Positions 19,345-48,346 are shown, counted from the first letter of the stretch. The stretch: 64,000 nucleotides of DNA from Candidatus Heimdallarchaeum aukensis (GCA_021513695.1 CP084166.1:448001-512000), one strand, 5' to 3'. Notes: a model not told the origin generated them from the letters alone. Program-made: numbers and translations.

Positions 19345-20313
19345 TTGGTGGTTTTTATTACAAATGAAAACACTTTTCGCACAGAAAAAGAAAATGAACT
19401 TGGTTTCGAACAATTTTTGATAAAAAAACCTTCAGTTTTTAGGTGGATAATAGTTTTCTTAATTACACTTGGTTCTAATTTACTTTGGGTAGCGCTTACA
19501 GAAATTCCACTAATGCTATTACTTTTTGTTGTAGGTGGGGTAATTACTATTTCAATCTTCTTTTGGTCTGTAACAGGTCAATGGAGTGTAAGAATACTAG
19601 TTCTAAAAAATATTGAACGTATATCGGTTGGAAAAATGGGTTTTTTTCTTAAATATTCTATGAAGTTCCTTGGAATGCATTTTGATAAAAATAATAAATA
19701 CTTTTTAGAACGAACAAGCTATTTTAGAGATTATAATAATATAAAAGAATTATTTTATGATAGACTTCTTGACCCTGTTTCTTCGTCACTTGGATTAGGT
19801 TTCTTAATAATAACTTTTGTCAAACCATTCATCACTACTGTTCCACAAGCAATGATTATAGCAAACTTCGTTCTTCTTACAACTCCATTACTGGCAGGTT
19901 TTATAATTCCATTCTATTGGATAATAAAAGATTCTAGAATAAGATACATAAATGAGAAAAACGACATTTTCAAAGCAGAAGAAAATATAAAGAAGAGTAC
20001 ACTTAACAAGTTTTTAGGTTTTTCAGGTTTTGTTGCAGGAATTAATTTCCTACTAGAAAGTTTGCCAGAACATCCAGCATTTGCTAAAGTTAACTCGACT
20101 TTGGTTTTATTCATACTTTCAGTAATCGTCCTTCTGTTCATAAGCTTGATAGTTGCAGGAATAAACCTTTTTGTAGCAACAGTATATCTAACAACAAAAC
20201 ATCAAAAATTAGTAAATGAATTAAGAAATAAAATTACAAATTTTATTCCTGTAGGAGAAACTAATGTTTTACTAAATGATGAAAGAAAATCAGAAGTTAA
20301 CTTTCAAAGATAG
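19345..20313 (+). CDS. polytopic membrane protein, unknown
   Basis: Multiple TM helices. Start uncertain. Confidence 0.35.
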   Translation: MVVFITNENTFRTEKENELGFEQFLIKKPSVFRWIIVFLITLGSNLLWVALTEIPLMLLLFVVGGVITISIFFWSVTGQWSVRILVLKNIERISVGKMGFFLKYSMKFLGMHFDKNNKYFLERTSYFRDYNNIKELFYDRLLDPVSSSLGLGFLIITFVKPFITTVPQAMIIANFVLLTTPLLAGFIIPFYWIIKDSRIRYINEKNDIFKAEENIKKSTLNKFLGFSGFVAGINFLLESLPEHPAFAKVNSTLVLFILSVIVLLFISLIVAGINLFVATVYLTTKHQKLVNELRNKITNFIPVGETNVLLNDERKSEVNFQR

Positions 20314-20551
20314 TTTTTTTTTTATTTTTAATTTTGTTATGATCTTAGACAATTAAAATATTCTTTTAAACTTTCGTTACAATATTTGATGAATTTGGGA
20401 AATTTGTATATTCTAATCCAATTAAACAAGAGTAAATAATAAAATTGCAATGAAAATCAATTACAATTAACTTTTGTTTAATTAAAGCTAGAAAATAGAT
20501 TATAATTTGTAAAAGATTGTTTAGGAAGTCTAAATAAAAAAAGAAAGGAAA

Positions 20552-22459
20552 TTAGTAGATTTTTTTCAGTTGTTTAAGGAGAGGAGTATAGATATCATAC
20601 TCTTCTTTTAGATCTTTTGCTATTATTAGTTCTTTCAGATTCTGTGCAGATTGTAAAATAAAAGTGGGTGCAGTACTCTCAATTAATGGATATTGTTTTG
20701 ATTTATATCCTGCTAAAACAGTATTGTTCTTTAGGCAAATAGAAGCCAATAGTTTAATTTCCTCTTCTTCGTTTAGTTCTTCTCCTTTTTCAAATAACCA
20801 GTTTATAGAACCTTTTTCTGCTATACTGCCTACCCAGATTAATAGAAGATAATCATAGATATCGTTAGGAAAGCCTAAACTGTTGTATTTGTTAAAAACA
20901 GAGAATAAATTAGCAAATTGTTCTACTTCTTTATTATCTTTACTTACTATCATTATAGAGATAAGAAAATCTTTTTGAACATCTGTGAGAGTATCTAAAA
21001 GCTCTTTCTTTATCTTTAACAATTCATCTTTCTTCTCTTTAATTTCTTCATAACTTTCATTGTTTATTTTGTAATTTCCAATTATCTCATCAAGTTGTTT
21101 TTTCCTTTCTTCTTCTAAACCTTCTAAATCTTTTGTATAATTTTCAATAATCTCTTTTAGAGTTTCTTTAGCTTCTTCTACTTCTTTCTCTGTAACTTCT
21201 GCATTAGTGATGGTCTTTCCTTGCATTGCAGCTTTTGTCTGTTTTTGCCAACTAAGTGCGTCTTTTAAACTTTTATCGTTTAATAAAGAGTTGATCATCT
21301 TTGCAACTATGTATTTAATTTCAACGATGGAATTAGCATCTCTTGTAGCTATTGAAAGAAATAGGTGTAAAACATTAGGCATCAAATTATAAGGATCAAT
21401 TTGTTGATTTCCTCTCAATGCACTAAAATTAAAGTTAGATAATGCCCATTCATATAAAGAACTTCCAACGAAGTTTGAAGGGGGATTAAGGGCAGAAAAT
21501 ATAGGTAAAGAAGTATACATGTTACCTATTGACAATAAAACATTATGCCAACCAAAGGTCGAAGAATCAAATTCTTTAATTCTTATTTCTTTTCCAGAGA
21601 TAAGGTATTCTTCAGTCAAATAATAAATTAAATGTTTATTTAAGCTGACTGAAGATAGAGAATCTGCTTCATATTTGGTCTCATTACTGTTTAATACAGA
21701 TATTAGCTCTATATTGTTAAATAATTCTGCTTGATTAGCGTCATCAAGTATTTCTTTTATTGATTCTTGGTTTTCAGGGTATAATGCTTCTAGAATGTGG
21801 TATATCCAGTGAATAATGTAAGCATAAACATTCTCATTTTGTTTAAGCACTTTTCTCCATTCAAACCATTGTTTTAGTCTATTTAGATAGATTTCACTCA
21901 TCTTTTCAATATCTGAATCACTTAATTCTTTTGTTGAATAACGCAATGGAAAGATTGAAACAGGTTCCTTATTATTAAACAGCACTTCTTTAATGTCTTT
22001 AATTAGTGTGTTAATAATTAGTTCAAGATCCATAATTGCATAACGTGAGATTACTTTTGCTTCTTTAAAATAATCAAAAGAGCAGCTTCCATTTCTCAAG
22101 AAAATGGGTTCATGAATGTAACTAACAATTTTATCAAAGAATTCTTTCCCCTTTTCATCTAATTGAGCAATAAGTTCTGATACTTCTTGAAAGATATAGG
22201 CATTAAGAAAAGCGTTAAACGCTGTTCCAATAATTTTTGCATTTGAAGCATAACTCTTAATAATTTTATTAATCTCTGGACTATTCTTTTTTATTTTACT
22301 TAACTCAAAGTCATCTGGAATCTTAACTAGTTCTTTATTACTATCTCGTGGCCTAAGAAATTTTCCTTCACTTTGAAAGACAAGTAGTTTGTTCTTTGTA
22401 TCCAAACCAAAAATAACTTCCTTGTCTAGCAATTTTCCTTCAAAAATTTTTATATCCAT
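20552..22459 (-). CDS. hypothetical protein with central coiled-coil region
   Basis: 635-aa ORF. Lys/Glu-rich heptad-like region (…EVEEAKETLKEIIENYTKDLEGLEEERKKQLDEII…). No catalytic motif recognised. Confidence 0.4.
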   Translation of the reverse strand: MDIKIFEGKLLDKEVIFGLDTKNKLLVFQSEGKFLRPRDSNKELVKIPDDFELSKIKKNSPEINKIIKSYASNAKIIGTAFNAFLNAYIFQEVSELIAQLDEKGKEFFDKIVSYIHEPIFLRNGSCSFDYFKEAKVISRYAIMDLELIINTLIKDIKEVLFNNKEPVSIFPLRYSTKELSDSDIEKMSEIYLNRLKQWFEWRKVLKQNENVYAYIIHWIYHILEALYPENQESIKEILDDANQAELFNNIELISVLNSNETKYEADSLSSVSLNKHLIYYLTEEYLISGKEIRIKEFDSSTFGWHNVLLSIGNMYTSLPIFSALNPPSNFVGSSLYEWALSNFNFSALRGNQQIDPYNLMPNVLHLFLSIATRDANSIVEIKYIVAKMINSLLNDKSLKDALSWQKQTKAAMQGKTITNAEVTEKEVEEAKETLKEIIENYTKDLEGLEEERKKQLDEIIGNYKINNESYEEIKEKKDELLKIKKELLDTLTDVQKDFLISIMIVSKDNKEVEQFANLFSVFNKYNSLGFPNDIYDYLLLIWVGSIAEKGSINWLFEKGEELNEEEEIKLLASICLKNNTVLAGYKSKQYPLIESTAPTFILQSAQNLKELIIAKDLKEEYDIYTPLLKQLKKIY

Positions 22460-22639
22460 TTTTTTCCCCTTTTCTCGCTATTAATGAACATTTTGCAAAG
22501 TTTTTATTTGTTTGCTTGTATGACATACAATTTTAACTTCAAATAATAATTCTAAATGTTAATTTAAATTAGGTCCCTTTAAAAAATCTTAAAAAATAAA
22601 TAAGTTATTCATATTATCGATTATACAGAGAATCTAGAA

Positions 22640-23938
22640 ATGAATAAAGTAAATTATCTTTCAGAGAAAGGAATGTTCATCGAAAAAAATGTTAATCTTT
22701 CAGCAGGAACTCTTGCTTGGGGAAGTAAGGCAAGACAAAGAGCTAAAGAAGTTAAGGATTTTATAGACGCAACAATTGGCTCGGCAAAAAGTGATGAAGG
22801 AAAGTTATTTGCTTTTAAAACCTTTGAAGAGGAATTAAAAGGGTTACCAGCAGATAAAATGTTTGGTTATGCAAACGTTAGAGGACAAAAAAGATTTACA
22901 AGAGCTTGGATGGAAGATACATTAGAAACCTTTCCAAGTGAATATAGAGAAAAATCTCGTTTATTATCAACAGAACCTATAACAACTTGCGGCGGGATTA
23001 CAGGAGGATTAACTATTGCAGGTCAACTCTTTTTCGATAAAACAGATAATTTACTTGTTCCTAATTCAAGATGGAGTAATGTAGATAATTGTTTCTTCAA
23101 AAACCAACAGATAACAGAATTAAATTATAATCTGATTGACATAGAAGGAAATCTATCTTTTGATGACCTTATAGAGAAAATTAAACTTCTAGAAAAAGAA
23201 AATAAAAAAATTGGTATATACTTTAATTTTCCAAACAATCCCAGTGGTATAAGCCCCACTTTATCACAAATAAAAGAAATTCAAGAAACTTTAGAAGAAG
23301 TAAAAGTTCCAACAGTAATTATTTTAGACGATGCTTATGAAGGATATGTCTATTCTGATGATGTTTTAGATCATTCGATTTACCCTTATTTAATCGGGCT
23401 AAATGAGAATGTCCTAACAATTAAAGTAGACGGTATGAGTAAAAGATATTCTGCTTATGGAGTAAGATTAGGTACAATTATGCTAGGTTTTGGAAAAGAA
23501 GTTGATGAGAAAGAAAAAGAAGATTATCGCGAGCTGATAGCTAAAGGTGCAAGGTCTTTAACTTCTAGTTCTCCAAGAGGTCCTCAAGAAGCTTTTGCCA
23601 ACATTTCAGAAGACAAAAAGAAGAAAGAACAACTGAAAAAAGAAAAAGAAGAATTAAAGAATCTATTAAAAGAGAGGTATTTAGAGATAAAAGCTTTAAT
23701 AAAAGATAAAGAGCATGATACTATTCACCCTGTCGACTTTAATAGTGGTTTCTTCGGTTATTGGATAATTAAGAACGATCTTCTATCATTCGATTTAGGA
23801 GAAAAGTTGTTAGAAAGAGGTTTAGGAACTGTACCATTTTACAACAATACAACAGGATTAAATGGTATAAGATTAGCTTTTTGCTCAATAAAAAGAGATG
23901 ATCTCGAAAAAGCAATTGATATTCTTTATTCAATCTAA
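22640..23938 (+). CDS. PLP-dependent aminotransferase, class I/II fold
   Basis: NFPNNPSGISPT (N-P-x-N-P-T/S-G motif) and VDGMSKRYSAYGVRLG (PLP-Lys SK…G.R.G motif). Unusual charged coiled-coil insert near residues 320-350. Confidence 0.6.
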   Translation: MNKVNYLSEKGMFIEKNVNLSAGTLAWGSKARQRAKEVKDFIDATIGSAKSDEGKLFAFKTFEEELKGLPADKMFGYANVRGQKRFTRAWMEDTLETFPSEYREKSRLLSTEPITTCGGITGGLTIAGQLFFDKTDNLLVPNSRWSNVDNCFFKNQQITELNYNLIDIEGNLSFDDLIEKIKLLEKENKKIGIYFNFPNNPSGISPTLSQIKEIQETLEEVKVPTVIILDDAYEGYVYSDDVLDHSIYPYLIGLNENVLTIKVDGMSKRYSAYGVRLGTIMLGFGKEVDEKEKEDYRELIAKGARSLTSSSPRGPQEAFANISEDKKKKEQLKKEKEELKNLLKERYLEIKALIKDKEHDTIHPVDFNSGFFGYWIIKNDLLSFDLGEKLLERGLGTVPFYNNTTGLNGIRLAFCSIKRDDLEKAIDILYSI

Positions 23939-30491: not shown

Positions 30492-31616
30492 ATGATTTCT
30501 TATTACTCTATAGGTTTATTCTTATTTGAGCAACTTACTTTTATTACTAGCAGCATTATTTTGTTTAGAACTTACAAGCAGACTCGCTTTCTTTCTCACT
30601 TCCTTTTGGGTACTAGCTATCTTTTGTGGGTTTTCAATTCTATAGGAAGATTCATTACTTCTTTTTTCAGTGAAAATGTAATAATCTTCGACAATACTCG
30701 ACTTATTTCACTTATTTGGATCATTGTTAACTGTTTGTTAATTCTTGGAATGATTTTCGTTTTCTATTCTTTTATTTATTTCAAGACTAACAGATTACAT
30801 CCTATAATAAACATAGTTAGTTTTTTAGGAGGAGCATTATTTCTTGCATTTATAATACCTGATTTCACTGAATTGACTTACTCTGAACAACTTGGAGCTT
30901 GGTCTGCGAAATATAGTATTTGGATATCTGTTCTTGTTATTCCAATGCTTTTATTCTTCATTTTTTCTTTTATTCTTCCCATTTCTACAAAAATTGTTAG
31001 AACTACTGACAAAGATATTCGTAAGCAACTATTTGTGCAGATAGTCGGACTTATTATCGTAATTATCTGGGCATTTTTCGCTGGTTTTACTAGCAATGCT
31101 GTTCTTCGAGCTGTTCGTCCTTTCCTTATGGCAACAGGCTGGTTTATCTGGTCTTTAACTTTGATAATGGATCCTTTCAACATAATGATTTCTAACGCTA
31201 AAATTAGTCAATTATTGATTACAACTACTAGCGGTTTACCAATCTATTATGATGACTTCACTTTTGATGAAAAAGAAGTAAAAAGTGAGATTTCTGCAGA
31301 TCTAGCTTCAGGTTTAATTTCAGGAGTTACCCAAGCTCTAGAGCAAATAATGGAAAGAAAATCGGAATTAAACACTGTAGTATATAAAGACAAAGTTATA
31401 GGTACTACTGCAGTAGGCTATCTTCAAGCATATATTTTTGGAGAAAGATTTGATAAAACTTTAGAAACTGTATTAAATGTTCTTCTAAGAGAAATACAAG
31501 ATAATCCAGCTCTTGCTTTAAAAATCACTCCCAACTTTGTAGATCTAGATGGGGCTTCAGGAAAAATCTTGAAACTCATAGTTGAAAAAAATCTAAAGAG
31601 AATATTAGTAATTTAA
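30492..31616 (+). CDS. membrane protein (N-terminal ~7 TM helices) with C-terminal soluble domain, unknown function
   Basis: Hydrophobic N-terminal two-thirds. C-terminal ~130 aa predicted soluble (…GLISGVTQALEQIMERKSELNTVVYKDKVIGTTAVGYLQAYIF…). Confidence 0.4.
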   Translation: MISYYSIGLFLFEQLTFITSSIILFRTYKQTRFLSHFLLGTSYLLWVFNSIGRFITSFFSENVIIFDNTRLISLIWIIVNCLLILGMIFVFYSFIYFKTNRLHPIINIVSFLGGALFLAFIIPDFTELTYSEQLGAWSAKYSIWISVLVIPMLLFFIFSFILPISTKIVRTTDKDIRKQLFVQIVGLIIVIIWAFFAGFTSNAVLRAVRPFLMATGWFIWSLTLIMDPFNIMISNAKISQLLITTTSGLPIYYDDFTFDEKEVKSEISADLASGLISGVTQALEQIMERKSELNTVVYKDKVIGTTAVGYLQAYIFGERFDKTLETVLNVLLREIQDNPALALKITPNFVDLDGASGKILKLIVEKNLKRILVI

Positions 31617-31774: not shown

Positions 31775-32503
31775 ATGATTGCACCAACTATTGATTCTTT
31801 ATGGTCTGCAGCTTTGGGATATTTTTTTGGTTCAATACCCTTATCTTTTATAATCGTCAAAGTTTTTCTTGACGGGTTAGATATTCGAACAGTTGGATCA
31901 AAAAATGTCGGTGGAAGAAATGTTATTAGATCTTTCAAGTATAAAGGAAAGTCAAATAATGTTGCTTATACTATGGGGTTAATTGTAGCTATCTTTGATA
32001 TATTGAAAGGATACTTTGCTATGTGGCTGTCACAGTATCTATCTTACAATTTTGGAAATAATGACCCTTGGAGCATTTGCTTTGCAGGTATTTTTGCTAT
32101 ACTTGGACATAATTGGCCAATATGGTTATTAAGTCATGGTGGAAGAGGAGTAGCAACAACTCTTGGTAATTTGATGTTTTTCAATCCTATCTTCTTTTTA
32201 ATATGGCTAGCAACGTTTTTCTTACTCAGTTTTCCTCTTATGTATTCAGCTATCGTTTACATCACTAGTTTTATAGTTATGGGAGTTATTCTATACTTCT
32301 GGCCCTGGTATGTAAGTCCGATGGTAACAGAACTGAAAAACGACCCCAATCTAGGTTTTTTATCAATGATAATGCTTTTCGGTATAACTCTTGTTGTTCT
32401 TTCGCGTCAAAAATCTAATTTCATGAAAATAAAGAATGGTGAAGCAAAAAGAATGAAATTATGGAAAATATTCCAAGGAAAGGCAGATGAAGCCTTAAAA
32501 TAA
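31775..32503 (+). CDS. plsY: glycerol-3-phosphate acyltransferase PlsY-like (acyl-phosphate:G3P acyltransferase family)
   Basis: GYFFGSIPLSFII…DIRTVGSKNVGGRNVIRSF matches the bacterial PlsY N-terminal signature (…CGSIS…DPRTSGSGNPGATNVLR…). ILKGYFAMW matches VLKG…W. AILGHNWPIWL…GGRGVATTLG matches LGHIWP…GGKGVAT. Confidence 0.7.
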   Translation: MIAPTIDSLWSAALGYFFGSIPLSFIIVKVFLDGLDIRTVGSKNVGGRNVIRSFKYKGKSNNVAYTMGLIVAIFDILKGYFAMWLSQYLSYNFGNNDPWSICFAGIFAILGHNWPIWLLSHGGRGVATTLGNLMFFNPIFFLIWLATFFLLSFPLMYSAIVYITSFIVMGVILYFWPWYVSPMVTELKNDPNLGFLSMIMLFGITLVVLSRQKSNFMKIKNGEAKRMKLWKIFQGKADEALK

Positions 32504-32541: not shown

Positions 32542-33288
32542 CTATTTTAGTTCTATTAATTCAGAGGATTCTATTTCTAGCGAAAGAGTCTCTTTTTCAT
32601 TTTGTATCTTTAAAAGTCCATTATCCTCAATTCCTTCTACTGTATATTCTTGATTTTTGTAGATAATATTATTTTTGCACAATATATCATAAGAATTAAA
32701 TTCCTTCAAGATTTCTTTAAGATTGTTTTTTAGAACCTTGATAATATAGTTTTTAATTTGCTTATGCAATTCTTTTGTTAATTTCTCATTATCTACTTTT
32801 ATTTTCAAGGATTCATTTATTGAAATAGCTATAGAATTGACTGGAGAGTCTAAAGAAAGAACTTTGTTATTTGTATTTATTCCTATTCCAACGAGTAGAA
32901 AATTACAATTTGTATCTTTCACTGTATCAATTAAAATTCCGCCTAACTTTCTTTTTTCTAGAATTATATCATTTGGCCATTTAATTTTAACAGGTATAGA
33001 CAGAATTGTTTCTATTGCTTTTCTTACTCCTAAAGCAATAGAATAATGAAGAAAAGCATATTGTTTTTGATTTATTTCTTCTTTTTTACAAAAAACAAAC
33101 GTTCCCCACCAACCTCCTTTTGGAGAAAACCATTTACTCTGTTTTCTTCCAATACTTGCAGATTGTTCCTCTGCTATTATTAACAAATCTTCATTTTTTG
33201 CTAATTCTAAATAAGACAAAGCTACATTTTGAGTGGAAGGAACAGATTGAAAATGAATGATTTTCAAGGAAAAGGATTCTTGAGCCAT
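32542..33288 (-). CDS. birA: biotin--protein ligase (BirA catalytic domain, no HTH)
   Basis: SIGRKQSKWFSPKGG (GRxGRxWxSPxG biotinyl-AMP loop) and KWPNDI motif. Confidence 0.75.
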   Translation of the reverse strand: MAQESFSLKIIHFQSVPSTQNVALSYLELAKNEDLLIIAEEQSASIGRKQSKWFSPKGGWWGTFVFCKKEEINQKQYAFLHYSIALGVRKAIETILSIPVKIKWPNDIILEKRKLGGILIDTVKDTNCNFLLVGIGINTNNKVLSLDSPVNSIAISINESLKIKVDNEKLTKELHKQIKNYIIKVLKNNLKEILKEFNSYDILCKNNIIYKNQEYTVEGIEDNGLLKIQNEKETLSLEIESSELIELK

Positions 33289-33401: not shown

Positions 33402-34976
33402 ATGGCTCGTATTACTCATATTGGACATGATAAAGGAATTTTGGAAGAAAAAAGACAAACAATACTTTCACTAAGAGAAAAGTCTCTAAAAGGTGGGGGA
33501 GAGGAAAAAATAGCCAGTCAACACAATAAAGGAAAGCTTACTGCGAGAGAGAGAATAGAATTATTGGTTGACGAAAATTCTTTTTGCGAAATAGATCAAA
33601 TAAGAAAATCTCAACATTCTGAATTAGAAATGGAAAAAATAGAAGGAGACGGTGTAGTAACAGGTTATGCAACTATTAATGGTAGACGAGTCTTTATTTA
33701 TAGTCAAGATTTTACCGTTTTGGGAGGAAGTTTAGGAAAAACTCACGCAAAAAAAATTTGTAAAGTTATGGATCTTGCTCTTCAGAGTGGGTGTCCTATA
33801 ATAGGGTTACTTGACTCTGGAGGAGCAAGAATTCAAGAAGGAATAGATTCTCTAGCTGGTTATGGTGAAATATTTTATAGAAATGTAATGAGTTCAGGGG
33901 TAATTCCCCAAGTTTCTATTATTTTGGGTCCTTGTGCTGGAGGAGCGGTCTATTCTCCTGCCCTAACTGATTTTATTATTATGAATCAAATTAATTCATT
34001 TATGTTTGTTACTGGCCCTCAAGTTGTTAAGACAGTTACCGGTGAAGATGTTTCATTCTATGATTTAGGAGGAAGTGAAGTACATAGTTCACTTAGCGGA
34101 GTAAGTCATTTAGTAGGAGAAGATGAAGAGGAAACGATAAATTTAGCTAAGAGACTCTTATCTTACCTTCCATCGAACAATTTAGATGACCCTCCACAAG
34201 AAATAGATGATATCGAAGAAAATGATCAAGATATTCTTTCTGATATTATTCCTGAGCAGGAAAATGAACCTTATGATATGAAAAAAGTAGTTGAAACAGT
34301 TTTAGACCAAGACAGTTTCTTTGAATTACAAGAAAATTGGGCAAAAAACATTATTGTTGGTTTCGGAAGATTAGAAGGTTTAACTGTCGGTATTATTGCA
34401 AACCAACCTTTATTTCTTGGAGGAGCTATAGAATATAATGCTGCGGATAAAGCAGCAAGATTTATTCGTTTTTGTGATTCATTTAACATCCCTATAATTA
34501 CTTTTGTTGATGTACCTGGTTTTATGCCAGGATTAAAACAAGAGGAAGAAGGAATAATTCGTCATGGAGCTAAAATGCTTTTTGCTTATTCAGAAGCTAC
34601 TGTCCCAAAACTTGCAGTAATAACAAGAAAAGCTTATGGAGGAGCTTATATTGTTATGAGCTCAAAGCATTTAGGAGCTGATATTAATTTTGCTTGGCCT
34701 ACAGCAGAAATAGCTGTCATGGGGGCAGAGGGAGCTTGTAATATTATTTATAGAAAAGAACTGAAAAAAGCTGAAAATCCAGAACAAGCTTTGCAAGATT
34801 TTGTTGTAAAATACAAAAAACAGTTCAGCAATCCTATTCGAGCAGCTGAGAAAGGATATGTTGACAAAGTTATTTTGCCTGAAGAAACAAGAATTGAACT
34901 TTCTAATGCCTTGAAATTTTTACAAAATAAAAGGATAGATACCCCGAAAAGAAAACACGGGAATATTCCACTTTAA
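33402..34976 (+). CDS. acyl-CoA carboxylase carboxyltransferase subunit (PccB/AccD family; alternatively the alpha subunit of a biotin-dependent decarboxylase/transcarboxylase)
   Basis: Full-length two-domain carboxyltransferase pattern (…GGSLGKTHAKKICKVMDLA…, …GPCAGGAVYSPALTDF…, …AYGGAYIVMSSKHLGAD…). Confidence 0.85.
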   Translation: MARITHIGHDKGILEEKRQTILSLREKSLKGGGEEKIASQHNKGKLTARERIELLVDENSFCEIDQIRKSQHSELEMEKIEGDGVVTGYATINGRRVFIYSQDFTVLGGSLGKTHAKKICKVMDLALQSGCPIIGLLDSGGARIQEGIDSLAGYGEIFYRNVMSSGVIPQVSIILGPCAGGAVYSPALTDFIIMNQINSFMFVTGPQVVKTVTGEDVSFYDLGGSEVHSSLSGVSHLVGEDEEETINLAKRLLSYLPSNNLDDPPQEIDDIEENDQDILSDIIPEQENEPYDMKKVVETVLDQDSFFELQENWAKNIIVGFGRLEGLTVGIIANQPLFLGGAIEYNAADKAARFIRFCDSFNIPIITFVDVPGFMPGLKQEEEGIIRHGAKMLFAYSEATVPKLAVITRKAYGGAYIVMSSKHLGADINFAWPTAEIAVMGAEGACNIIYRKELKKAENPEQALQDFVVKYKKQFSNPIRAAEKGYVDKVILPEETRIELSNALKFLQNKRIDTPKRKHGNIPL

Positions 34977-34997
34977 AATTATTAAGAGGAGAATTTT

Positions 34998-37900
34998 ATG
35001 AAAACTCTAAAAGAACTAAAAAATGAACTACAAATTAAATATCCAATTTTTGGATATAATCCTATCGGACTTGCTGATCCCACGTTAGCTATTGAAATCT
35101 CCAAACTTGGAGGAGTGGGATTAATTAACACTATTGGACTTGAACAAGAAGAACTAACTAAGATTCTTGATCAATGCGAACTTAATCTACCCACACAACT
35201 ATGGGGAATAAGGATTAACGATCTTTCTCACATTAAATGGATTAATCATGAACGAAGTATTCCAATCGTTATCCTACCGGAGAAACCTACAAGATTACAA
35301 CTGGATAAACTGCGTAAAATAAGTAAATTTATTGTCGCTGAAGTTTTATTTGTTGAAGAAGCAAAAAGTCATCTTGAATGGTCAGATTTCTTTTTAGTTA
35401 AAGGTATTGAAGCAGGAGGAAAAGTTGGTACAAAAGCTTCTTTTATTCAGATTCAAGAGTTTTATGAAACTGGATGGCCTTTTATCATTCAAGGAGGAAT
35501 GGGTGCTTTTAATATTAGTTCTGCTCTAATAGGAGGAGCAATAGGAGTAGTTTTTGAGGGACAATTATATCAATTTCCTGAATGTCCTCTTTCTGAAGAA
35601 GCGAAAAAGTATCTTGCTTCTTTAGGTGAAAATGATTCTTTCATTATCAATGAAAGTGGTAAAGAAGGTTACAGAATTTCTGGAAAACTAGCTAACAAAG
35701 CAATTAGAGAAATAAAACAACTAGAAGAAGAATCAAGTGAGGAAAAAATACTTGATAGAATTACTGAATTTGAAAAACCTCACGATCAATTTGGTTTTAA
35801 GAGTCAGAACATTAAACACGCATTTTTACCACTAGGTAACGATGTTTTCTTCTCCACATTCTTCAAGAAAAGATTTGGAAATTTAACAAATTTTGTGGAG
35901 CAAGCTCTTAAGATAGCTGATGAACAAATACAGATTGCTCTAAGAAATTGGCCTTTTGCAAAAGGTTCTACTTTATCCAACTTTCTAGGTACAAAATATC
36001 CTATTATTCAAGGCCCTATGGCTAATGTTTCTGATAATGTAGACTTTGCTATTAATGTAGCGAAAAATGGAGCTCTTCCTTTCTTAGCTTTGGGTGGATT
36101 ACTAAAAGAAGAAACTGAGGAGCTTTTTGATAAAGTTAGAGAAAGTGAACTTGTAAAATATTCCTATGGTTGTGGGATTATAGGTTTAGAAGCAGTTAAA
36201 CAAAGGAGAGAAGAGCACCTTTCTTTAATGAGAGATCTTAAACCTCCCTTTGCTTTGATTGCTGCTGGAACAGTTAATTTAGCTAAACAAGTACAAGAAA
36301 TGGGTTTTAAGACTTTATTACACACTCCCGCTCTATCAATGTTTAAAGATTCTATCAAAAATGGAATAGATTTACAAATTTTAGAAGGGAGTGAATGTGG
36401 AGGACATATTGGACTTCTTTCATCTTTTATTTTATGGGAAAGTATTTTGGAATTTTTAGATGAAAATAGAGAACAGATAGAAAAACCTTTGAAAATAGCT
36501 TTTGCAGGAGGGATATCTGACGGCACTAGTTCTGCGATGCTAGCAGTTATGATTGCTAAACATCTAGATATTATAGAATCAGCAATACAGATGGGTACAT
36601 CCTACTTATTTACTGAAGAGATTCTAGAAACAAAGGCTTTAACTGGATTTTATCAAGAACTTCTTCTTAATTCTAACTACACCAGAATTATAGGCTCAAC
36701 AGTAAATACTCGAGCACGAGCTGCTCCTTCACCTTTTGTAGATCAAACAATTAAAAGAGAAAGAGAGAGAATTAGACAAAAAATACCAATAAAAGAAAGA
36801 AAAGAACTTTACGAGAAAGATAATCTAGGAGCTTTAAGAATTGCAGCTAAAGCTGAAAAATGGAATAACGATCATGTTCCTGGTACTGCAACTACACAGT
36901 TTATAAAAATCGATGAAGAGGAACAGAAAAACTTTGGTTGCTTTATGGCTGGAGAAGTAATAGCAAAGAAACGTAGTATTTACAAGATAGATGACCTACA
37001 CTATGATATTTCAGTAATTGGAAAAGAAATCTTAGAAAAGCAATCAACTTCTATTGCTGATTATTTACTTTCAAAAGAAAAACTAGAAGCTTATGTTTCT
37101 AAAGAACAAAGTCCTCTAGTTATAGATAGTACTAATAAAATTGCTATAGTAGGAATAGGTAGTTTCTTCCCTGATGCTCCAAACACAGAAAAATTCTGGG
37201 AAAATATTGTTAACAAACATTATGCTGTAACTGAAGTACCTATTGAAAGATGGGATCCTAAATATTATTATGACGAAGATCGAACCGCTCCAGACAAGAC
37301 TTATACCAAAATTGGAGCGTTTGTAAAAGAATTTAAATTTAAACCTATTCAATTCAAGATTCCTCCTAAAGTAGCTGAAAAGATGGATGAAGTTCAGAAA
37401 TGGTCATTAATTGCTGCAAAAGAAGCTTTAGAAGATGCTGGAATACCCACAGATGGCAAGAAACGCCTACCTATAGGAGTAATTGTAGGCAATGCTTTAG
37501 GTGGAGAAAATCAGAGAATTACTAACAGGAGATTACACTATCCAGAAATTGAAGAACAACTAAAAATTTTATTAAGCTCAAAATTGTCTGATGAGGAAGT
37601 AGAAAAGTTTGTTTCTTCTTTCAAGAAAGAATATCTCAGTAAATACGCAGAGATTACAGAGGATACTATGCCTGGAGAATTATCTAATGTTGTTGCGGGA
37701 AGAATAGCCAATATATTCAATTTATCTGGTAAATCAATGACAACAGATGCTGCATGTGCTTCTTCTCTTGCTGCTCTGGACATTGCGGTAAAAAGTTTGT
37801 TGAATAACGATTTTGATACTATTCTTGTTGGCGGAGCAGATAGATCTATGGATGTTTCTTCTTATGTTAAATTCAGTAAGATCGGTGCTCTTTCTGCAAC

Positions 37901-39518
37901 TGGTTCTCGACCTTTTGATTCCAAGGCAGACGGTTTTGTAATGGGAGAAGGATGTGGTTTTCTTGTCTTGAAGAAATTGAAAAAAGCTATTGAAGACAAT
38001 GACAAAATTTATGCCATAATTGATTCTGTTGGTTCTTCCTCTGATGGTAAAGGAAAAGGAATTACTGCTCCTAATCCTTTAGGACAAAAAGAAGCTATTG
38101 AAAGAGCTCTTGAACAAGCTAAAGTTTCTCCTTCTGAGATAGATTTAATTGAAGCACATGGAACTTCCACCATAGTAGGAGATAAAACAGAAGTTCAAGT
38201 TTTAAATGAGATTTTCACAGAAAAACAAAAAGAAAGAAAAAGGAAAATAGCTCTTGGTTCAATTAAAAGCCAAATTGGTCATTTAAAGAGCGCAGCAGGT
38301 ATAGCTTCTGTTATAAAAGTAGCTTTAGCTCTTGACAAGAAAATTCTTCCACCAACGATAAATGTTCAAGAACTTAATCCTGCGATTGATTGGAATAATT
38401 CTAATCTTTTTGTTAATCTTGATGCTCAACCATGGGAAAAGGTTGATAACTCTATCAGAAGAGCAGGAGTTTCTGCTTTTGGTTTTGGAGGAACAAATTA
38501 TCATACAATCTTGGAAGAATATATTCCAGAAGCACAGTACATAGAAAAAGAAAAGCAACCAATAGTTGAACTAAAAGAACAAAAAGAAGAAGTTTGCTTC
38601 CTTTATACTGGACAAGGAAGTCAATATTTAGGCATGATAAAGGAACTTTATGATAATTATCCAACTGTTAGAAAAACAATAGATGAAGCTTCAGTTATTG
38701 CTAAAGAGAGTTTAAATGCTGATTTGCGTGAAATAATTTTTGGTTCACCTCAACTTTCCAAAGTTGAAAATGAGGAAAGATTAAGACAAACAGAATACAC
38801 TCAACCTTCTCTCTTTGTAGTCGAAGTTGCTTTAACTAGATTATTGAAAGAAAAAGGAATTGAGCCTACAAGAGTAGCTGGACATAGTTTAGGAGAATAT
38901 ACTGCTTTAGTTGCTGCGGGAGTGTTCTCTTTTGAAGATGGATTAAAAGCTGTAATAGAAAGAGGAAAAGCGATGGCAAAAGCTTCTAAAAGTATCCCTG
39001 GAGCAATGGCAGCTATTCTTACATCTCAAGAAAAAGTTAAGGAAATTATAGAAAAGGTAAATGAAGGTTATATAACAGTAGCCAATTATAACTCATTAAA
39101 CCAAACAGTGATTTCGGGAGAAGAAAAAGCTGTAAACAAAGCTATAGAACTTTTCTCTGCAAGAAAAATAAAAGCAATAAAATTAAATGTTTCAACAGCT
39201 TTTCATTCTATTATTGTTAAAGATGCAGAAATAGAAATGGAGAGAGTGCTTAACAGCCTGACTTACAATAAACCTTCAATTCCTGTCTATTCAAATGTAA
39301 CGGGAAGTTTGTACCCTGACAAACCCTCTAAAATTAAAGAACTTCTAATTAATCAGCTCTGTAATTCTGTTCAATGGGTTAAGATTTCAGAAATGGTCAT
39401 TAATTGCTGCAAAAGAAGCTTTAGAAGATGCTGGAATACCCACAGATGGCAAGAAACGCCTACCTATAGGAGTAATTGTAGGCAATGCTTTAGGTGGAGA
39501 AAATCAGAGAATTACTAA
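34998..39518 (+). CDS. type I FAS/PUFA-synthase-like megasynthase, N-terminal part: tandem FabK/PfaD-like (NPD/TIM-barrel, FMN) enoyl-reductase domains, ketosynthase (KS1), acyltransferase (AT); truncated by a frameshift at a tandem-duplication junction
   Basis: YPIIQGPMANVSD and LQILEGSECGGHIG (FabK/nitronate monooxygenase motifs). KS: IAIVGIGSFFPDAP, TDAACASSLAAL (Cys), EAHGTSTIVGDKTE, GSIKSQIGHLKSAAG. AT: FLYTGQGSQYLGM, GHSLGEYTAL. After 39385 the frame runs into copy B of the duplication out of frame and stops at 39518. Confidence 0.8.
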   Translation: MKTLKELKNELQIKYPIFGYNPIGLADPTLAIEISKLGGVGLINTIGLEQEELTKILDQCELNLPTQLWGIRINDLSHIKWINHERSIPIVILPEKPTRLQLDKLRKISKFIVAEVLFVEEAKSHLEWSDFFLVKGIEAGGKVGTKASFIQIQEFYETGWPFIIQGGMGAFNISSALIGGAIGVVFEGQLYQFPECPLSEEAKKYLASLGENDSFIINESGKEGYRISGKLANKAIREIKQLEEESSEEKILDRITEFEKPHDQFGFKSQNIKHAFLPLGNDVFFSTFFKKRFGNLTNFVEQALKIADEQIQIALRNWPFAKGSTLSNFLGTKYPIIQGPMANVSDNVDFAINVAKNGALPFLALGGLLKEETEELFDKVRESELVKYSYGCGIIGLEAVKQRREEHLSLMRDLKPPFALIAAGTVNLAKQVQEMGFKTLLHTPALSMFKDSIKNGIDLQILEGSECGGHIGLLSSFILWESILEFLDENREQIEKPLKIAFAGGISDGTSSAMLAVMIAKHLDIIESAIQMGTSYLFTEEILETKALTGFYQELLLNSNYTRIIGSTVNTRARAAPSPFVDQTIKRERERIRQKIPIKERKELYEKDNLGALRIAAKAEKWNNDHVPGTATTQFIKIDEEEQKNFGCFMAGEVIAKKRSIYKIDDLHYDISVIGKEILEKQSTSIADYLLSKEKLEAYVSKEQSPLVIDSTNKIAIVGIGSFFPDAPNTEKFWENIVNKHYAVTEVPIERWDPKYYYDEDRTAPDKTYTKIGAFVKEFKFKPIQFKIPPKVAEKMDEVQKWSLIAAKEALEDAGIPTDGKKRLPIGVIVGNALGGENQRITNRRLHYPEIEEQLKILLSSKLSDEEVEKFVSSFKKEYLSKYAEITEDTMPGELSNVVAGRIANIFNLSGKSMTTDAACASSLAALDIAVKSLLNNDFDTILVGGADRSMDVSSYVKFSKIGALSATGSRPFDSKADGFVMGEGCGFLVLKKLKKAIEDNDKIYAIIDSVGSSSDGKGKGITAPNPLGQKEAIERALEQAKVSPSEIDLIEAHGTSTIVGDKTEVQVLNEIFTEKQKERKRKIALGSIKSQIGHLKSAAGIASVIKVALALDKKILPPTINVQELNPAIDWNNSNLFVNLDAQPWEKVDNSIRRAGVSAFGFGGTNYHTILEEYIPEAQYIEKEKQPIVELKEQKEEVCFLYTGQGSQYLGMIKELYDNYPTVRKTIDEASVIAKESLNADLREIIFGSPQLSKVENEERLRQTEYTQPSLFVVEVALTRLLKEKGIEPTRVAGHSLGEYTALVAAGVFSFEDGLKAVIERGKAMAKASKSIPGAMAAILTSQEKVKEIIEKVNEGYITVANYNSLNQTVISGEEKAVNKAIELFSARKIKAIKLNVSTAFHSIIVKDAEIEMERVLNSLTYNKPSIPVYSNVTGSLYPDKPSKIKELLINQLCNSVQWVKISEMVINCCKRSFRRCWNTHRWQETPTYRSNCRQCFRWRKSENY

Positions 39519-41378
39519 CAGGAGATTACACTATCCAGAAATTGAAGAACAACTAAAAATTTTATTAAGCTCAAAATTGTCTGATGAGGAAGTAGAAAAG
39601 TTTGTTTCTTCTTTCAAGAAAGAATATCTCAGTAAATACGCAGAGATTACAGAGGATACTATGCCTGGAGAATTATCTAATGTTGTTGCGGGAAGAATAG
39701 CCAATATATTCAATTTATCTGGTAAATCAATGACAACAGATGCTGCATGTGCTTCTTCTCTTGCTGCTCTGGACATTGCGGTAAAAAGTTTGTTGAATAA
39801 CGATTTTGATACTATTCTTGTTGGCGGAGCAGATAGATCTATGGATGTTTCTTCTTATGTTAAATTCAGTAAGATCGGTGCTCTTTCTGCAACTGGTTCT
39901 CGACCTTTTGATTCCAAGGCAGACGGTTTTGTAATGGGAGAAGGATGTGGTTTTCTTGTCTTGAAGAAATTGAAAAAAGCTATTGAAGACAATGACAAAA
40001 TTTATGCCATAATTGATTCTGTTGGTTCTTCCTCTGATGGTAAAGGAAAAGGAATTACTGCTCCTAATCCTTTAGGACAAAAAGAAGCTATTGAAAGAGC
40101 TCTTGAACAAGCTAAAGTTTCTCCTTCTGAGATAGATTTAATTGAAGCACATGGAACTTCCACCATAGTAGGAGATAAAACAGAAGTTCAAGTTTTAAAT
40201 GAGATTTTCACAGAAAAACAAAAAGAAAGAAAAAGGAAAATAGCTCTTGGTTCAATTAAAAGCCAAATTGGTCATTTAAAGAGCGCAGCAGGTATAGCTT
40301 CTGTTATAAAAGTAGCTTTAGCTCTTGACAAGAAAATTCTTCCACCAACGATAAATGTTCAAGAACTTAATCCTGCGATTGATTGGAATAATTCTAATCT
40401 TTTTGTTAATCTTGATGCTCAACCATGGGAAAAGGTTGATAACTCTATCAGAAGAGCAGGAGTTTCTGCTTTTGGTTTTGGAGGAACAAATTATCATACA
40501 ATCTTGGAAGAATATATTCCAGAAGCACAGTACATAGAAAAAGAAAAGCAACCAATAGTTGAACTAAAAGAACAAAAAGAAGAAGTTTGCTTCCTTTATA
40601 CTGGACAAGGAAGTCAATATTTAGGCATGATAAAGGAACTTTATGATAATTATCCAACTGTTAGAAAAACAATAGATGAAGCTTCAGTTATTGCTAAAGA
40701 GAGTTTAAATGCTGATTTGCGTGAAATAATTTTTGGTTCACCTCAACTTTCCAAAGTTGAAAATGAGGAAAGATTAAGACAAACAGAATACACTCAACCT
40801 TCTCTCTTTGTAGTCGAAGTTGCTTTAACTAGATTATTGAAAGAAAAAGGAATTGAGCCTACAAGAGTAGCTGGACATAGTTTAGGAGAATATACTGCTT
40901 TAGTTGCTGCGGGAGTGTTCTCTTTTGAAGATGGATTAAAAGCTGTAATAGAAAGAGGAAAAGCGATGGCAAAAGCTTCTAAAAGTATCCCTGGAGCAAT
41001 GGCAGCTATTCTTACATCTCAAGAAAAAGTTAAGGAAATTATAGAAAAGGTAAATGAAGGTTATATAACAGTAGCCAATTATAACTCATTAAACCAAACA
41101 GTGATTTCGGGAGAAGAAAAAGCTGTAAACAAAGCTATAGAACTTTTCTCTGCAAGAAAAATAAAAGCAATAAAATTAAATGTTTCAACAGCTTTTCATT
41201 CTATTATTGTTAAAGATGCAGAAATAGAAATGGAGAGAGTGCTTAACAGCCTGACTTACAATAAACCTTCAATTCCTGTCTATTCAAATGTAACGGGAAG
41301 TTTGTACCCTGACAAACCCTCTAAAATTAAAGAACTTCTAATTAATCAGCTCTGTAATTCTGTTCAATGGGTTAAGAT
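37393..41378. repeat. perfect direct tandem duplication, 2 x 1993 bp (copy A 37393-39385, copy B 39386-41378) covering most of KS1 and all of AT
   Basis: Identical sequence at an offset of 1993 nt throughout. Duplicate antisense ORFs appear at 37538/39531, 38325/40318, 38362/40355, 38455/40448. 1993 mod 3 = 1. Deleting one copy restores one continuous ~3,515-aa reading frame (34998..47538 minus 1993). Confidence 0.95.
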
Positions 41379-44300
41379 AATTGAAGAGATGTATAACGAT
41401 GGAGGAAGAATTTTTGTAGAAGTAGGACCTAAAAAAGCATTGTACAACTTTGTTAAAGATATTTTAGGTGAAAAAGAAGACATTCAAACTTTTCTTACAT
41501 TAAACCCGAAAGTAGGAGAGTTAAAATCTTTTAATGATACTGTCTCTAAATTAAAAATGAGCAAAAGAAGAGAAACCGAAACCCCAGTTCAAACTAAAGA
41601 AAAAATAGTTTACAAAGAATCAGCACTAGATGTTTTACTTAAAAATAAAGAGATTAACAACTTGGTCTCTAAACCCTATTTCCGTGAGTATTTGAAAGAG
41701 AACAGCAATCTTCTTTCATCTATAATGAAACAAGGTTACGAGCAGTTCTCAAAGTACAGAGAATCATTGGTTATTGCTGAAAAAGCTAAATATTGGGATA
41801 TAAACTTTGATCTTATTGGTGTTACTGGTGTTGGAATTGGTCTCCCAGGAAAGAATAGAGCTGTTTTCTCTGATGATAATTTTGATCTTATTCTCAATGG
41901 AACAAATCTTATCGAATCTGTTGAAGATACAATAAAACAAGAAACTTTAGACAAAAACATCGTTAGGTTAGTTAAATCTCCTGATGGTAATGCAACTTTT
42001 GAAGCAATTGACGATATAAGTAAAGTTATTCAACTTGCAGCACAGATAGGAGAATTAAACTTCAAAGAATTAGGTATAGAAGATAAATTGGCTAAAGCTT
42101 TAGACTCCACTTTTATTATGGCTATAGGTGCAGGACTAGAAGCGTTGAAAGATGCTGGTATTCCTCTTGTTGAAAGCAAAATAGTTACTTCAACTGGAAA
42201 AACTTTGAAAGGGAGCTGGACTTTACCAGAATCCTTACAACATGATACTGGAATAGTTTTTGCTTCTGCTTTTCCCGGATATGATAATTTAGTAGATGAA
42301 GTAACAAGACATCTTGTAGCTAAATTTGAAAACAAAACTAATAAAGAGATTGAGGAGATATTTGAGCAATTAATTAATGTTGTATCAAACCCTGAAGCAA
42401 AAGAAGAGATCTCTAACTGGTTCTTGGAGAAACAATCTCTACTGGAAGAAAAAGAAGAAAAGTATACTTTTAGTAGAGAGTTCCTTTACAAAGTTTTGTC
42501 TATGGGGCACTCTCAATTTGCCCAATTTATTAAAGCTAAAGGTCCGAATACTCAAGTCAATGCTGCTTGTGCTTCTACAACCCAAGCAATTGGTGTAGCA
42601 GAAGATTGGATAAGAACTGGAAGATGTAAGAGAGTAATAGTAATAGCTGGAGACAATGCTGCAAGCAAGAATCTGTTACCTTGGATAGGTGGGGGATTCT
42701 TAGCAGCTGGGGGAGTAACCACAAAAGCCGATGTTAAAGAAGCTGCTTTACCTTTTGGAAAAGAAAGACATGGATTAATTATAGGTTCAGCTTCTGCAGG
42801 TCTTGTAATTGAAAGCAGAGAATCCTATGAAGAAAGAGGAGTTAAACCAATAGTAGACCTTGTGGGTACTTATATGGCAAATAGTGCTTATCATGGTTCT
42901 AGATTAGATGTCAACCATATTTCTGAAGAACTTGAAAGCTTTATTGAAAAAGTAGAAAGAAGATATAATATCGACAGGAAAAATATCGCTAAAGAAGGTA
43001 TTTTTGTCTCTCATGAAACTTATACACCTGCAAGAGGAGGAAGTGCAGAAGCAGAAATTCAATCACTTCTTAATGTTTTCAAAGAAGATGCTTATTCTAT
43101 GACCATAATAAACACAAAAGGATTTACAGGTCATTCAATGGGTGCAGGAATAGAAGAAGCTGTAGCTATTAAAGCAATAGAAAAAGGTAAGATTCCTCCA
43201 ATTGCTAACATAGAGAAACTTGACCCTGCCTTTTCTAAATTTAAGTTCTCAAAAGGAGAAAAGAGAAGATTTTCCTTCGCTTTGAGATTAGCAGCTGGAT
43301 TTGGGTCACAATTAGCTTTTGCTCTCTTCAGGTTAAATACTTACGACAACAGATTCTCTGCCCAATACAATGAATGGCTCAAGAGTCTTGGTGGTGGCAA
43401 AGAAGAGTTATTTGTTGAAGGCAGAGTACTTAAACTCAAAACAGATAATAAGAAAAAACAAGCTGATTTAGTTAAGAAACCAGCAGTACAAAAAACTGTT
43501 GAAAAGAAAATTAAAACTGTTACAAAAGCACCTACAGATATTCTTCAAGTTGTAAAAGATATTATTTCTGAAAAAACAGGTTATGAAACAGAAGTCATTG
43601 AAGAAAATATGCATTTAGAAGAAGATCTTGGGATTGACAGTATTAAAGCAGCAGAAATAATGAACGATATTAGCGATAAATGGTCAATACCTCAAGAAAA
43701 ACTCTTCGAACAATTTGATATCGATACACCAGGAAAAATTGCAAAGTTCATTTCTGAAAACACAAGCGCTCCTGAAGAGACAAGTTATTCAGTTGAAACA
43801 ACTGTAGCAAAAGAGGAAGTAAAAAGAGCAGAAACTTCTAGTGTTTCAACAGGAGATATTTTAGTGCGAATTAAAGAAGTAATTGGAAAACACACAGGTT
43901 ATGACATTCAAGATCTAGATGAAAACTATGACCTAGAAGAAGATCTGGGAATAGATACAGTAAAACAAGCAGAAATTTTTGGAGATTTAAGAGATTTATT
44001 CGGATTGGATTTAGATGAGACTTATGCTTTAGCAGATTATCGAACAATAGCTGACATTGCCCAAGCAATATCTACAGAGAAACCAGTGGAAAAGGTTAAA
44101 CAAGTGGAAACTGAAGAAAGCGGAGAGATTAGAACAGCACAACAACCAACAATCATATCTGAAGCTGAAAGTTCAATTTCCAGAGAAGAAGTTACAAAAG
44201 AAGTGCTTTCAATTATCTCAGAAATTACAGGATACGATACAGAAGATATAGAAATAGAGATGGATCTAGAGGAAGATTTGGGTGTTGATAGTATCAAGAT

Positions 44301-47538: not shown

Positions 47539-47572
47539 TATGGAGATTAAAAAAAAAAAAAGGTGATAATAT

Positions 47573-48334: not shown

Positions 48335-48346
48335 ATAACTTATGGA

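Follow-up and report, generated by a model that had tools for sequence, protein, structure and literature searches.

We analyzed a stretch of 64,000 nucleotides from the genome of Candidatus Heimdallarchaeum aukensis (GCA_021513695.1, CP084166.1:448001-512000), hereafter the window, and focused on a 242-residue open reading frame (ORF) that resembles PlsY, the bacterial acyl-phosphate:glycerol-3-phosphate (G3P) acyltransferase. The PlsY-like gene follows an uncharacterized ORF on the same strand, unk374. It is itself followed by a gene for a BirA-type biotin-protein ligase on the opposite strand and then, again on the plus strand, by genes for a carboxyltransferase, a megasynthase of the type I fatty acid synthase/polyketide synthase (FAS/PKS) class, an alpha/beta hydrolase, and a biotin carboxyl carrier protein (BCCP) (Table 1).

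The ORF matched the Pfam family PF02660 (G3P_acyltransf) over profile positions 1-163 of 164 with 117.7 bits (E 7.3e-34; gathering score 24.1), far above chance, and phmmer aligned it to the sequence of the crystallized Aquifex aeolicus enzyme (aaPlsY; PDB 5XJ5-5XJ9) with E 5e-14. An AlphaFold2 model was generated from an input of 24 homologues (pLDDT 89.3, pTM 0.86) and compared with the Protein Data Bank using Foldseek. The only significant matches were five aaPlsY entries (5XJ5-5XJ8), with a Foldseek probability of 1.00 and TM-scores on the target of 0.75-0.79, the next match having an E value of 0.49; the model adopts the seven-transmembrane (7-TM) PlsY fold. A first-pass annotation of the window had recognized PlsY motifs, and GSKNVGGRN (residues 41-49), LGHNWP (residues 110-115), and GGRGVAT (residues 122-128) are indeed all there; the profile search it proposed as a check came out in its favor. 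Assignment to a different membrane family, which it had named as the outcome that would count against it, was found neither by profile nor by fold, and its wording of a "5-TM" family was mistaken, PlsY being a 7-TM protein (PMC5700162). A protein of Ca. H. aukensis in the NCBI database is 100% identical to the ORF, which confirms the archaeal host that the annotation had assumed, and already bears the name glycerol-3-phosphate acyltransferase. The ORF is therefore a real, previously annotated homologue of the PlsY family of membrane acyltransferases. Its score against TIGR00023, the NCBIfam equivalog for canonical PlsY, was 124.4 bits, under the cut-off of 137.2, which leaves it outside that narrower group.

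For a comparison of individual residues, 118 homologues from a search of 5.8 billion proteins were aligned with aaPlsY using MAFFT, and the roles of residues and the activities of mutants were taken from Li et al. 2017 (PMC5700162, Table 2). The alignments contained no gaps, or nearly none, around the compared residues. All canonical bacterial matches carry S35-N37-T41-N42-R45-H92-GGKGVA-S142-H177-N180-R183-E189. The window ORF, at ~25-27% identity, resembles aaPlsY in its PF02660 match, its 7-TM fold, and its three recognizable motifs, and it matches residues Ser35, Asn37, Asn42, Arg45, His92, Gly102, Gly103, Gly105, and Asn180. It differs in carrying Arg for Thr41, Arg for Lys104, Tyr for Ser142, Gln for His177, and Lys for Arg183. 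Residues are also inserted after motif 1, and the C terminus bears a conserved extension (...GKxxEALK).

Motif 1 keeps Ser42, Asn44, Asn49, and Arg52, the equivalents of aaPlsY Ser35, Asn37, Asn42, and Arg45, and places Arg48 at the position of Thr41. In aaPlsY, the Thr41 side chain hydrogen-bonds the carbonyl of the acyl-phosphate donor; the T41A mutant has 4.8% activity, and Arg occupies this position in 3.0% of 7,288 homologues (PMC5700162, Table 2). His112 corresponds to His92, and Arg124 stands in place of Lys104, a position that is Lys or Arg across the archaeal clades described below and at which the K104R mutation leaves aaPlsY with 25% of its activity (PMC5700162). Tyr162, invariant in both of these clades, lies at the Ser142 position. 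In the motif 3 equivalent, Gln212 replaces His177 and Lys218 replaces Arg183, and Asn215, equivalent to Asn180, is retained. The side chains of Ser142 and His177 bind the 2-OH of G3P in aaPlsY; the H177Q mutant has 1.0% activity, and His is 91.4% conserved at this position, with Gln absent from the listed alternatives (PMC5700162, Table 2). Glu223, displaced by one residue in the alignment, may replace Glu189 in role.

These features extend well beyond the window. In aaPlsY numbering, Arg41, Tyr142, and Gln177 are shared by the ORF and all ~70 archaeal relatives, which also retain the acceptor phosphate clamp (S35, R45, K/R104, and N180), the "phosphate hole" formed by H92 with the GG(K/R)G loop, and N37 at the oxyanion site. 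Among the relatives, position 183 is Lys nearly throughout, and position 189 aligns with Ala nearly throughout, an invariant Glu lying one residue before it. In an alignment of 24 diverse sequences from clades 1 and 2 (49% mean column identity), 33 columns are invariant, every phosphate-binding residue among them, as are Arg48, Tyr162, Gln212, and Asn215. The window ORF has the residues of the G3P phosphate clamp (Ser42, Arg52, Arg124 as a conservative K to R change, and Asn215) as well as those of the phosphate hole and oxyanion site (His112, G122-G-R-G-V-A127, and Asn44); the Thr41 hydroxyl of canonical PlsY is lost to Arg48, and the 2-OH-binding pair Ser142/His177 is replaced by Tyr162 and Gln212. 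The ORF is a member of the PlsY family but a non-canonical PlsY. The label "bacterial-type", which the first-pass annotation had attached to it, does not fit a protein that scores below the TIGR00023 cut-off and falls in a Heimdallarchaeia-specific branch with T41R, S142Y, and H177Q. Arg48, Tyr162, and Gln212 are the three residues singled out by the comparison.

We next consider how widely this combination is distributed. When 1.84 billion representatives at 50% identity were searched with a profile built from the two archaeal clades, 17,612 members of the family were obtained at E <= 1e-3 but only 14 at E <= 1e-30; scores of 340 and 297 bits for the two clades were followed by 161 bits and then by ~125 bits. 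From the best 150 of the 17,612, 140 representatives were aligned together with three references; the R41/Y142/Q177 signature was confined to four clusters, and 97 of the 143 aligned sequences carried the canonical SNTNRHK[S/A]HNRE. The source names of the signature clusters were Heimdallarchaeota, Heimdallarchaeaceae, or Kariarchaeaceae, one of the four clusters having no named member; of the clade-2 loci in the genome scan, one bore the label Thorarchaeota and one "Promethearchaeati". Clades 1 and 2 are 34-42% identical, and because both occur in at least nine genomes, they are paralogues; the scan of the complete chromosome of the sister species H. endolithica (CP084167.1) recovered clade 1 only. 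These relatives appear to form a small, Heimdallarchaeia-only branch of PF02660 with at least two paralogous clades, the window gene belonging to clade 1. The clade-2 paralogue (loci L016-L035) likewise shows the R/Y/Q signature and has a GG(K/R)GIT loop. A separate Heimdall/Asgard cluster, typified by P0248, has Arg41 and a degenerate motif 3.

A Chloroflexota-type group of PlsY paralogues shows that PF02660 contains other non-canonical branches. It comprises P0075, P0117, and ~25 others, the two source-named members being Chloroflexi/Chloroflexota. Like the window ORF, these proteins match PF02660, carry K104R, and have lost His177. Unlike the Heimdall clades, they lack Asn180, show the signature T/S-Q-G-N-R-H-GGRG...V-R-A-R-D, contain a 15-residue insertion in motif 3, and come from bacterial hosts, and they have no specific relation to the Heimdall clades.

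The gene is under strong purifying selection and is functional. The H. aukensis and H. endolithica copies differ by 37 synonymous and 4 non-synonymous codons, the proteins being 98% identical, and all four amino acid changes lie outside the motifs. Among six neighboring genes compared between the two species, the PlsY-like gene showed the strongest constraint.

Table 1. Features of the window; coordinates are counted from its first nucleotide.
Feature	Position	Strand	Remarks
UFC1-like (UFM1-conjugating enzyme) ORF	1080-1661	+	candidate eukaryotic signature protein; 26.1 bits (gathering score 25)
EAP30/Vps36-family (ESCRT-II) ORF	1837-2874	+	candidate eukaryotic signature protein
Beta-helix/NosD + TSP3 protein, 989 aa	13536-16505	+	secreted/surface-type
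POR beta/alpha	16571-19202	-	followed by unk322; usual clade-1 PlsY context (16571..23938)
unk635, unknown 635-aa ORF	20552-22459	-	usual clade-1 PlsY context
Class I aminotransferase	22640-23938	+	usual clade-1 PlsY neighbor
PaaK/coenzyme-F390-synthetase-like adenylate-forming enzyme	24112-25629	+	weak NCBIfam matches, no Pfam match
FG-GAP + TSP3 repeat protein, 1,482 aa	25796-30244	-	secreted/surface-type; internal repeats 82-99.8% identical
unk374, uncharacterized ORF	30492..31616	+	no Pfam/NCBIfam match; recurrent neighbor of clade-1 PlsY-like genes
PlsY-like ORF, 242 aa, Heimdallarchaeia clade 1	31775..32503	+	ATG-to-stop ORF; PF02660 7-TM membrane acyltransferase homologue
Motif 1, GSKNVGGRNVIR, residues 41-52	31895..31930	+	gap-free alignment to aaPlsY
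LGHNWP + motif 2 GGRGVAT (residues 122-128), acyl-phosphate "phosphate hole"	32102..32158	+	alignment to aaPlsY
Tyr162 codon, at aaPlsY Ser142	32258..32260	+	MAFFT alignment RYVSLASIT / MYSAIVYIT
Motif 3 equivalent, RQKSNFMKIKNGE, residues 211-223	32405..32443	+	alignment to aaPlsY
BirA-type biotin-protein ligase	32542..33288	-	PF03099 + TIGR00121, 134.4 bits; convergent with PlsY
Carboxyltransferase	33402-34976	+	profile match; megasynthase module
ArsA-like type I FAS/PKS megasynthase	34998-47538	+	divided in two by the internal 1,993-bp duplication
Tandem duplication, 1,993 bp, 100% identity	37393-39385 and 39386-41378		inside megasynthase
Tandem duplication, 2,696 bp, 99.9% identity	46992-49686 and 49688-52382		1 mismatch, 2 gaps
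Alpha/beta hydrolase	47573-48334	+	megasynthase module
BCCP	48347-48838	+	end of neighboring module (33402..48838)
Standalone "PPTase" ORF	49680-50234		product of the 2,696-bp duplication
Csm6 + type III-B (Cmr) CRISPR-Cas effector module	51770-59569	-	RAMP proteins, Cmr3, Cas10/Cmr2

The first-pass annotation had placed the PlsY-like gene between BirA and the carboxyltransferase and had proposed that it forms a functional unit with the megasynthase. The position was wrong: the order is unk374, PlsY, BirA on the minus strand, carboxyltransferase, megasynthase. The PlsY-like gene converges on BirA across a 38-bp gap, and the carboxyltransferase-megasynthase series starts past BirA on the plus strand, so that PlsY does not share a transcription unit with the megasynthase. 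To follow the arrangement in other genomes, tblastn searches with every protein of the window covered 34 loci with PlsY-like genes, another four encoding contigs, and four loci of the megasynthase. The PlsY-BirA-carboxyltransferase-megasynthase adjacency was found in 2 of 17 clade-1 loci (the window and H. endolithica) and in none of 20 clade-2 loci; among the loci searched, no conserved linkage between PlsY and the megasynthase exists outside the genus Heimdallarchaeum. Nor was PlsY present near any of the four other Asgard megasynthase loci (0/4) in up to 10 kb of sequence on each side. A candidate pairing of a PlsY (P0035) with a megasynthase (P0125) on one 38,321-bp contig was rejected as a coincidence, the two deriving from different assemblies.

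The same four loci show where BirA belongs. Two of them carry BirA on the minus strand, the carboxyltransferase, the megasynthase, KR-DH-PPTase, the hydrolase, BCCP, and biotin carboxylase; in a third, whose upstream side ends at the contig edge, the identical set is present from the carboxyltransferase onward, and the fourth differs in lacking the carboxylase genes. The divergently oriented pair BirA(-)/carboxyltransferase(+) opens the module in L086 and L089, and the module is found without PlsY in L086, L087, and L089. Since BirA opens the module elsewhere, it is a gene of the megasynthase module and no partner of PlsY, which is merely adjacent to the module in one genus. The location of PlsY beside BirA, the carboxyltransferase, and the megasynthase is thus a genus-specific juxtaposition and neither an operon nor a conserved functional unit, and the proposed unit falls with the opposite-strand BirA between its parts, the genus-only adjacency, and the empty score at the other megasynthase loci. 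One juxtaposition alone gives no grounds for inferring a shared function, nor for dismissing one.

The usual surroundings of clade-1 PlsY genes are different. The class I aminotransferase adjoins the PlsY-like gene in 13 other clade-1 loci, including that of P0002 (78% identity); unk635 is next in 9 of these 13, and the POR alpha/beta genes lie beyond where the contig is long enough. In the window, this context is found upstream of PlsY, with the PaaK-like, FG-GAP, and unk374 genes intervening. The locus of P0003 (74% identity) has neither the megasynthase nor the aminotransferase neighborhood. Homologues of unk374 adjoin PlsY-like genes in L003, L008, L084, and L085, making five loci with the window, and L085 has two tandem copies; by eye, unk374 has a hydrophobic N-terminal part of ~230 residues and a soluble-looking C-terminal part of ~140. 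In clade 2, a PGM/PMM-family gene is present in 20 of 20 loci, upstream and on the opposite strand in every locus for which a map was drawn, and the block of housekeeping genes around it is conserved. When the neighbor families were profiled, no conserved lipid-related neighbor was found for either paralogue. The aminotransferase was considered as a lipid-related alpha-oxoamine synthase of the serine-palmitoyltransferase type and rejected, NCBIfam assigning it as a generic class I aminotransferase; the clade-2 neighbors, namely six profiled families (PGM/PMM, a CxxCxxCC protein, a class II FBP-aldolase-like protein, FBPase, CofC, and CofD) and a SAM methyltransferase, were likewise rejected as lipid genes, being housekeeping functions.

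Within the 64-kb window, we detected no acyl-phosphate supplier (PlsX or FakAB), PlsC, G3P dehydrogenase (GpsA), or biotin carboxylase, and tblastn gave no match there to biotin carboxylase, thiolase, or acyl-CoA dehydrogenase. Scans of the window for tRNAs and Rfam families returned nothing, and a sigma-70 promoter and terminator scan around PlsY found fewer sites than in shuffled controls, with a model unsuited to an archaeon.

The megasynthase comprises ER-KS-AT, three acyl carrier protein (ACP) domains, KR, DH, and a phosphopantetheinyl transferase (PPTase) domain. Its module is common to Heimdall-, Loki-, and Thor-labeled Asgard metagenome-assembled genomes at 45-55% identity (L086, L087, L088, and L089), and the nearest named bacterial relatives of the megasynthase are ArsA-type "type I fatty acid synthases" (~35% identity). 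It resembles the ArsA/ArsD type I FAS of the Azotobacter vinelandii alkylresorcinol system in its domain content, ER(NMO)-KS-AT...ACP-KR-DH-PPTase, at ~33-37% identity. Unlike the Ars system, the Asgard megasynthase is embedded in a module with BirA, carboxyltransferase, BCCP, and, in some cases, biotin carboxylase. The products of the Ars enzymes go to type III PKSs and are not known to go to a glycerol-phosphate acyltransferase. A 2024 preprint states that archaea are without type I FAS and mostly without ACP and ACP synthase (10.1101/2024.07.05.601840), and the Asgard megasynthase module therefore merits separate assessment.

Two tandem duplications affect the module. As 1,993 bp is not a multiple of three, the first creates a stop at 39518 and an apparent second ORF that opens with a partial KS-AT; with the extra copy removed, the megasynthase is a single ORF of 3,515 aa. 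A short-read contig of the same organism, L001, lacks this duplication, which has possibly been collapsed there, as does H. endolithica (L003), in which the megasynthase ORF is continuous. The second duplication, of 2,696 bp, copies the PPTase end of the megasynthase, the alpha/beta hydrolase, BCCP (163 and 157 aa in the two copies), and the HEPN end of Csm6. According to the genome paper, the H. aukensis genome was assembled after multiple displacement amplification and scaffolded with Nanopore reads (PMC8813620), so that the duplications are possibly assembly artefacts; the 1,993-bp duplication is either a real recent event or such an artefact. The Csm6/Cmr module occupies the position that biotin carboxylase has in other Asgard megasynthase modules.

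Other genes of the window were noted in passing. Among the loci examined, the PaaK-like gene occurs only in the two Heimdallarchaeum species. The FG-GAP protein is 75% identical between these species, its neighbors being 94-98% identical. A second secreted or surface-type protein with TSP3 repeats and two candidate eukaryotic signature proteins, one of them only just above its gathering score, are given in Table 1.

The presence of the gene was already known, as follows from the NCBI annotation and from earlier reports of PlsY in Asgard archaea. Coleman et al. 2019, citing Villanueva 2017, report PlsY homologues in Loki-, Thor-, and Heimdallarchaeota and find no archaeal homologues of PlsX or PlsB (PMC6431249); Asgard PlsY homologues also appear in Manoharan et al. 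2019 (PMC6737245) and are discussed by Rieche 2026 (PMC13400652). The circularized Ca. H. aukensis genome was described by Wu et al. 2022, who list genes of ester-linked lipid synthesis in their Fig. 1d and report PlsC as absent from both Heimdallarchaeum species (PMC8813620); the window ORF is one of the Asgard "PlsY" homologues of this literature. These reports favor the other outcome that the first-pass annotation had named as counting against it, a genome with no partner that generates acyl-phosphate. The supplementary files of Wu et al. have no entry for plsY, plsX, or plsC; all they offer is the remark that Heimdallarchaeum encodes a protein related to glycerol-1-phosphate (G1P) dehydrogenase. 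The accessible parts of PMC6431249, PMC6737245, PMC8813620, and PMC13400652 discuss no active-site residues and make no mention of the R41/Y142/Q177 signature, the two paralogous clades, or the non-lipid neighborhoods; of the present results, only the active-site signature shared across the clade and the existence of paralogues have some novelty.

The first-pass annotation had also taken PlsY to imply G3P and thus bacterial/eukaryotic stereochemistry. This step is undermined by the PlsY proteins of B. subtilis and E. coli, which take G1P and G3P to about the same extent in vitro (Rieche 2026, PMC13400652), and by the change of both 2-OH-binding side chains in the window ORF. With a promiscuous PlsY, a G1P-dehydrogenase-related gene in the host, and the C2-reading residues replaced, no backbone stereochemistry can be inferred from the PlsY-like gene.

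We consider it likely that the window ORF is a PlsY-family enzyme of a Heimdallarchaeia branch, with an altered pocket, retained phosphate sites, and no conserved link to the megasynthase. Because the phosphate-binding residues are retained and the gene is under purifying selection, the protein probably retains acyltransferase activity, with a donor and an acceptor that are uncertain. Such an enzyme would still take an acyl group from a phosphate-anhydride donor, an acyl-phosphate or something similar, and the acceptor would be a small phosphorylated polyol, most plausibly a glycerol phosphate; since the host has the G1P-dehydrogenase-related protein and bacterial PlsY accepts G1P, G1P would be at least as likely an acceptor as G3P. 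Donor and acceptor specificity is in either case not transferable from bacterial PlsY: it probably differs, or at least should not be copied. Several points weigh against this reading. The H177Q and T41A mutations nearly abolish the activity of aaPlsY, and the activity may accordingly be low or different. No acyl-phosphate source is known in archaea, where PlsX is reported to be absent (PMC6431249), and we found no published biochemistry on any archaeal PlsY homologue. In a crude neighbor-joining tree the signature-bearing group was monophyletic with a bootstrap of 26/60, a value so weak that no claim is built on the monophyly. Finally, a functional link to the megasynthase may have been gained recently, without ancestral synteny, in a genus that has the ArsA-like megasynthase.

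A rival idea is that the ORF is a canonical, bacterial-type PlsY esterifying sn-G3P with chains made by the megasynthase and delivered as acyl-phosphate, the whole locus being an acyl-G3P lipid unit. The family and fold, the intact phosphate clamp and hole, the nearby biotin-dependent carboxylase and type I FAS-like module with its ACPs and PPTase, and the retention of the arrangement in H. endolithica all agree with it. We nevertheless judge it very unlikely, given the sub-cut-off TIGR00023 score, the replacement of Thr41, Ser142, and His177, a BirA gene of the module itself standing on the opposite strand between PlsY and the rest, and an adjacency limited to one genus and missing at the other Asgard megasynthase loci. 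PlsX, PlsC, GpsA, and biotin carboxylase are lacking from the window, the literature likewise reports that archaea lack PlsX (PMC6431249) and that H. aukensis lacks PlsC (PMC8813620), and PlsY is not G3P-specific even in bacteria (PMC13400652). At the other extreme, the loss of activity in the aaPlsY mutants (PMC5700162), and the fact that the literature reports neither donor-generating nor downstream enzymes in the lineage, could point to a relic without catalytic activity, or to a membrane protein that is no enzyme and has only retained the PlsY fold. We give this almost no credence in view of the invariant columns with all phosphate-binding residues, the tight constraint on the gene, and the maintenance of two paralogues in conserved contexts across Heimdallarchaeia. 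A more plausible alternative, though less likely than the reading we prefer and overlapping with it, is that the protein has been neofunctionalized, the Arg48/Tyr162/Gln212 pocket selecting another acceptor (G1P or another phosphorylated alcohol), another anhydride donor, or both, and yielding a lipid or lipid-like molecule other than bacterial lysophosphatidic acid. The three substitutions are invariant across sequences 34-100% identical and lie at the residues that contact the C2 stereocenter and the donor carbonyl (PMC5700162), the remaining catalytic apparatus is conserved under purifying selection, and the host reportedly has the G1P-dehydrogenase-related gene. An acyl-adenylate would be an example of such a donor and could conceivably come from the PaaK/F390-synthetase-like adenylating enzyme, whose gene lies 6 kb upstream in the two Heimdallarchaeum species, but that gene was not found near PlsY-like genes outside the genus. 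Neofunctionalization is further tempered by the lack of a conserved lipid-related neighbor for either paralogue and by its basis in sequence alone: Gln and Tyr are still hydrogen-bond donors, and the substitutions may be compensatory, the substrate being unchanged.

Heimdallarchaeia are the archaeal group closest to eukaryotes in several analyses, and Asgard PlsY homologues have repeatedly been cited as a sign of bacterial-type ester lipids in the archaeal ancestors of eukaryotes. Because its substrate-binding residues are altered and its adjacency to the megasynthase is found in one genus only, the PlsY-like ORF is poor evidence for a bacterial-type acyl-G3P lipid pathway; the Heimdallarchaeial proteins are non-canonical and, in the loci examined, showed no conserved link to a source of fatty acids or to phospholipid genes, which argues against deducing "acyl-G3P lipids" from annotation alone. 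It is an unlikely but consequential idea that the remodeled Heimdallarchaeial pocket has switched acceptor stereochemistry to G1P, or has changed donor or acceptor altogether, and would place ester-linked acyl chains on an archaeal-type backbone. If true, such an enzyme would make a lipid of mixed type, which would bear on the lipid-divide transition at eukaryogenesis.

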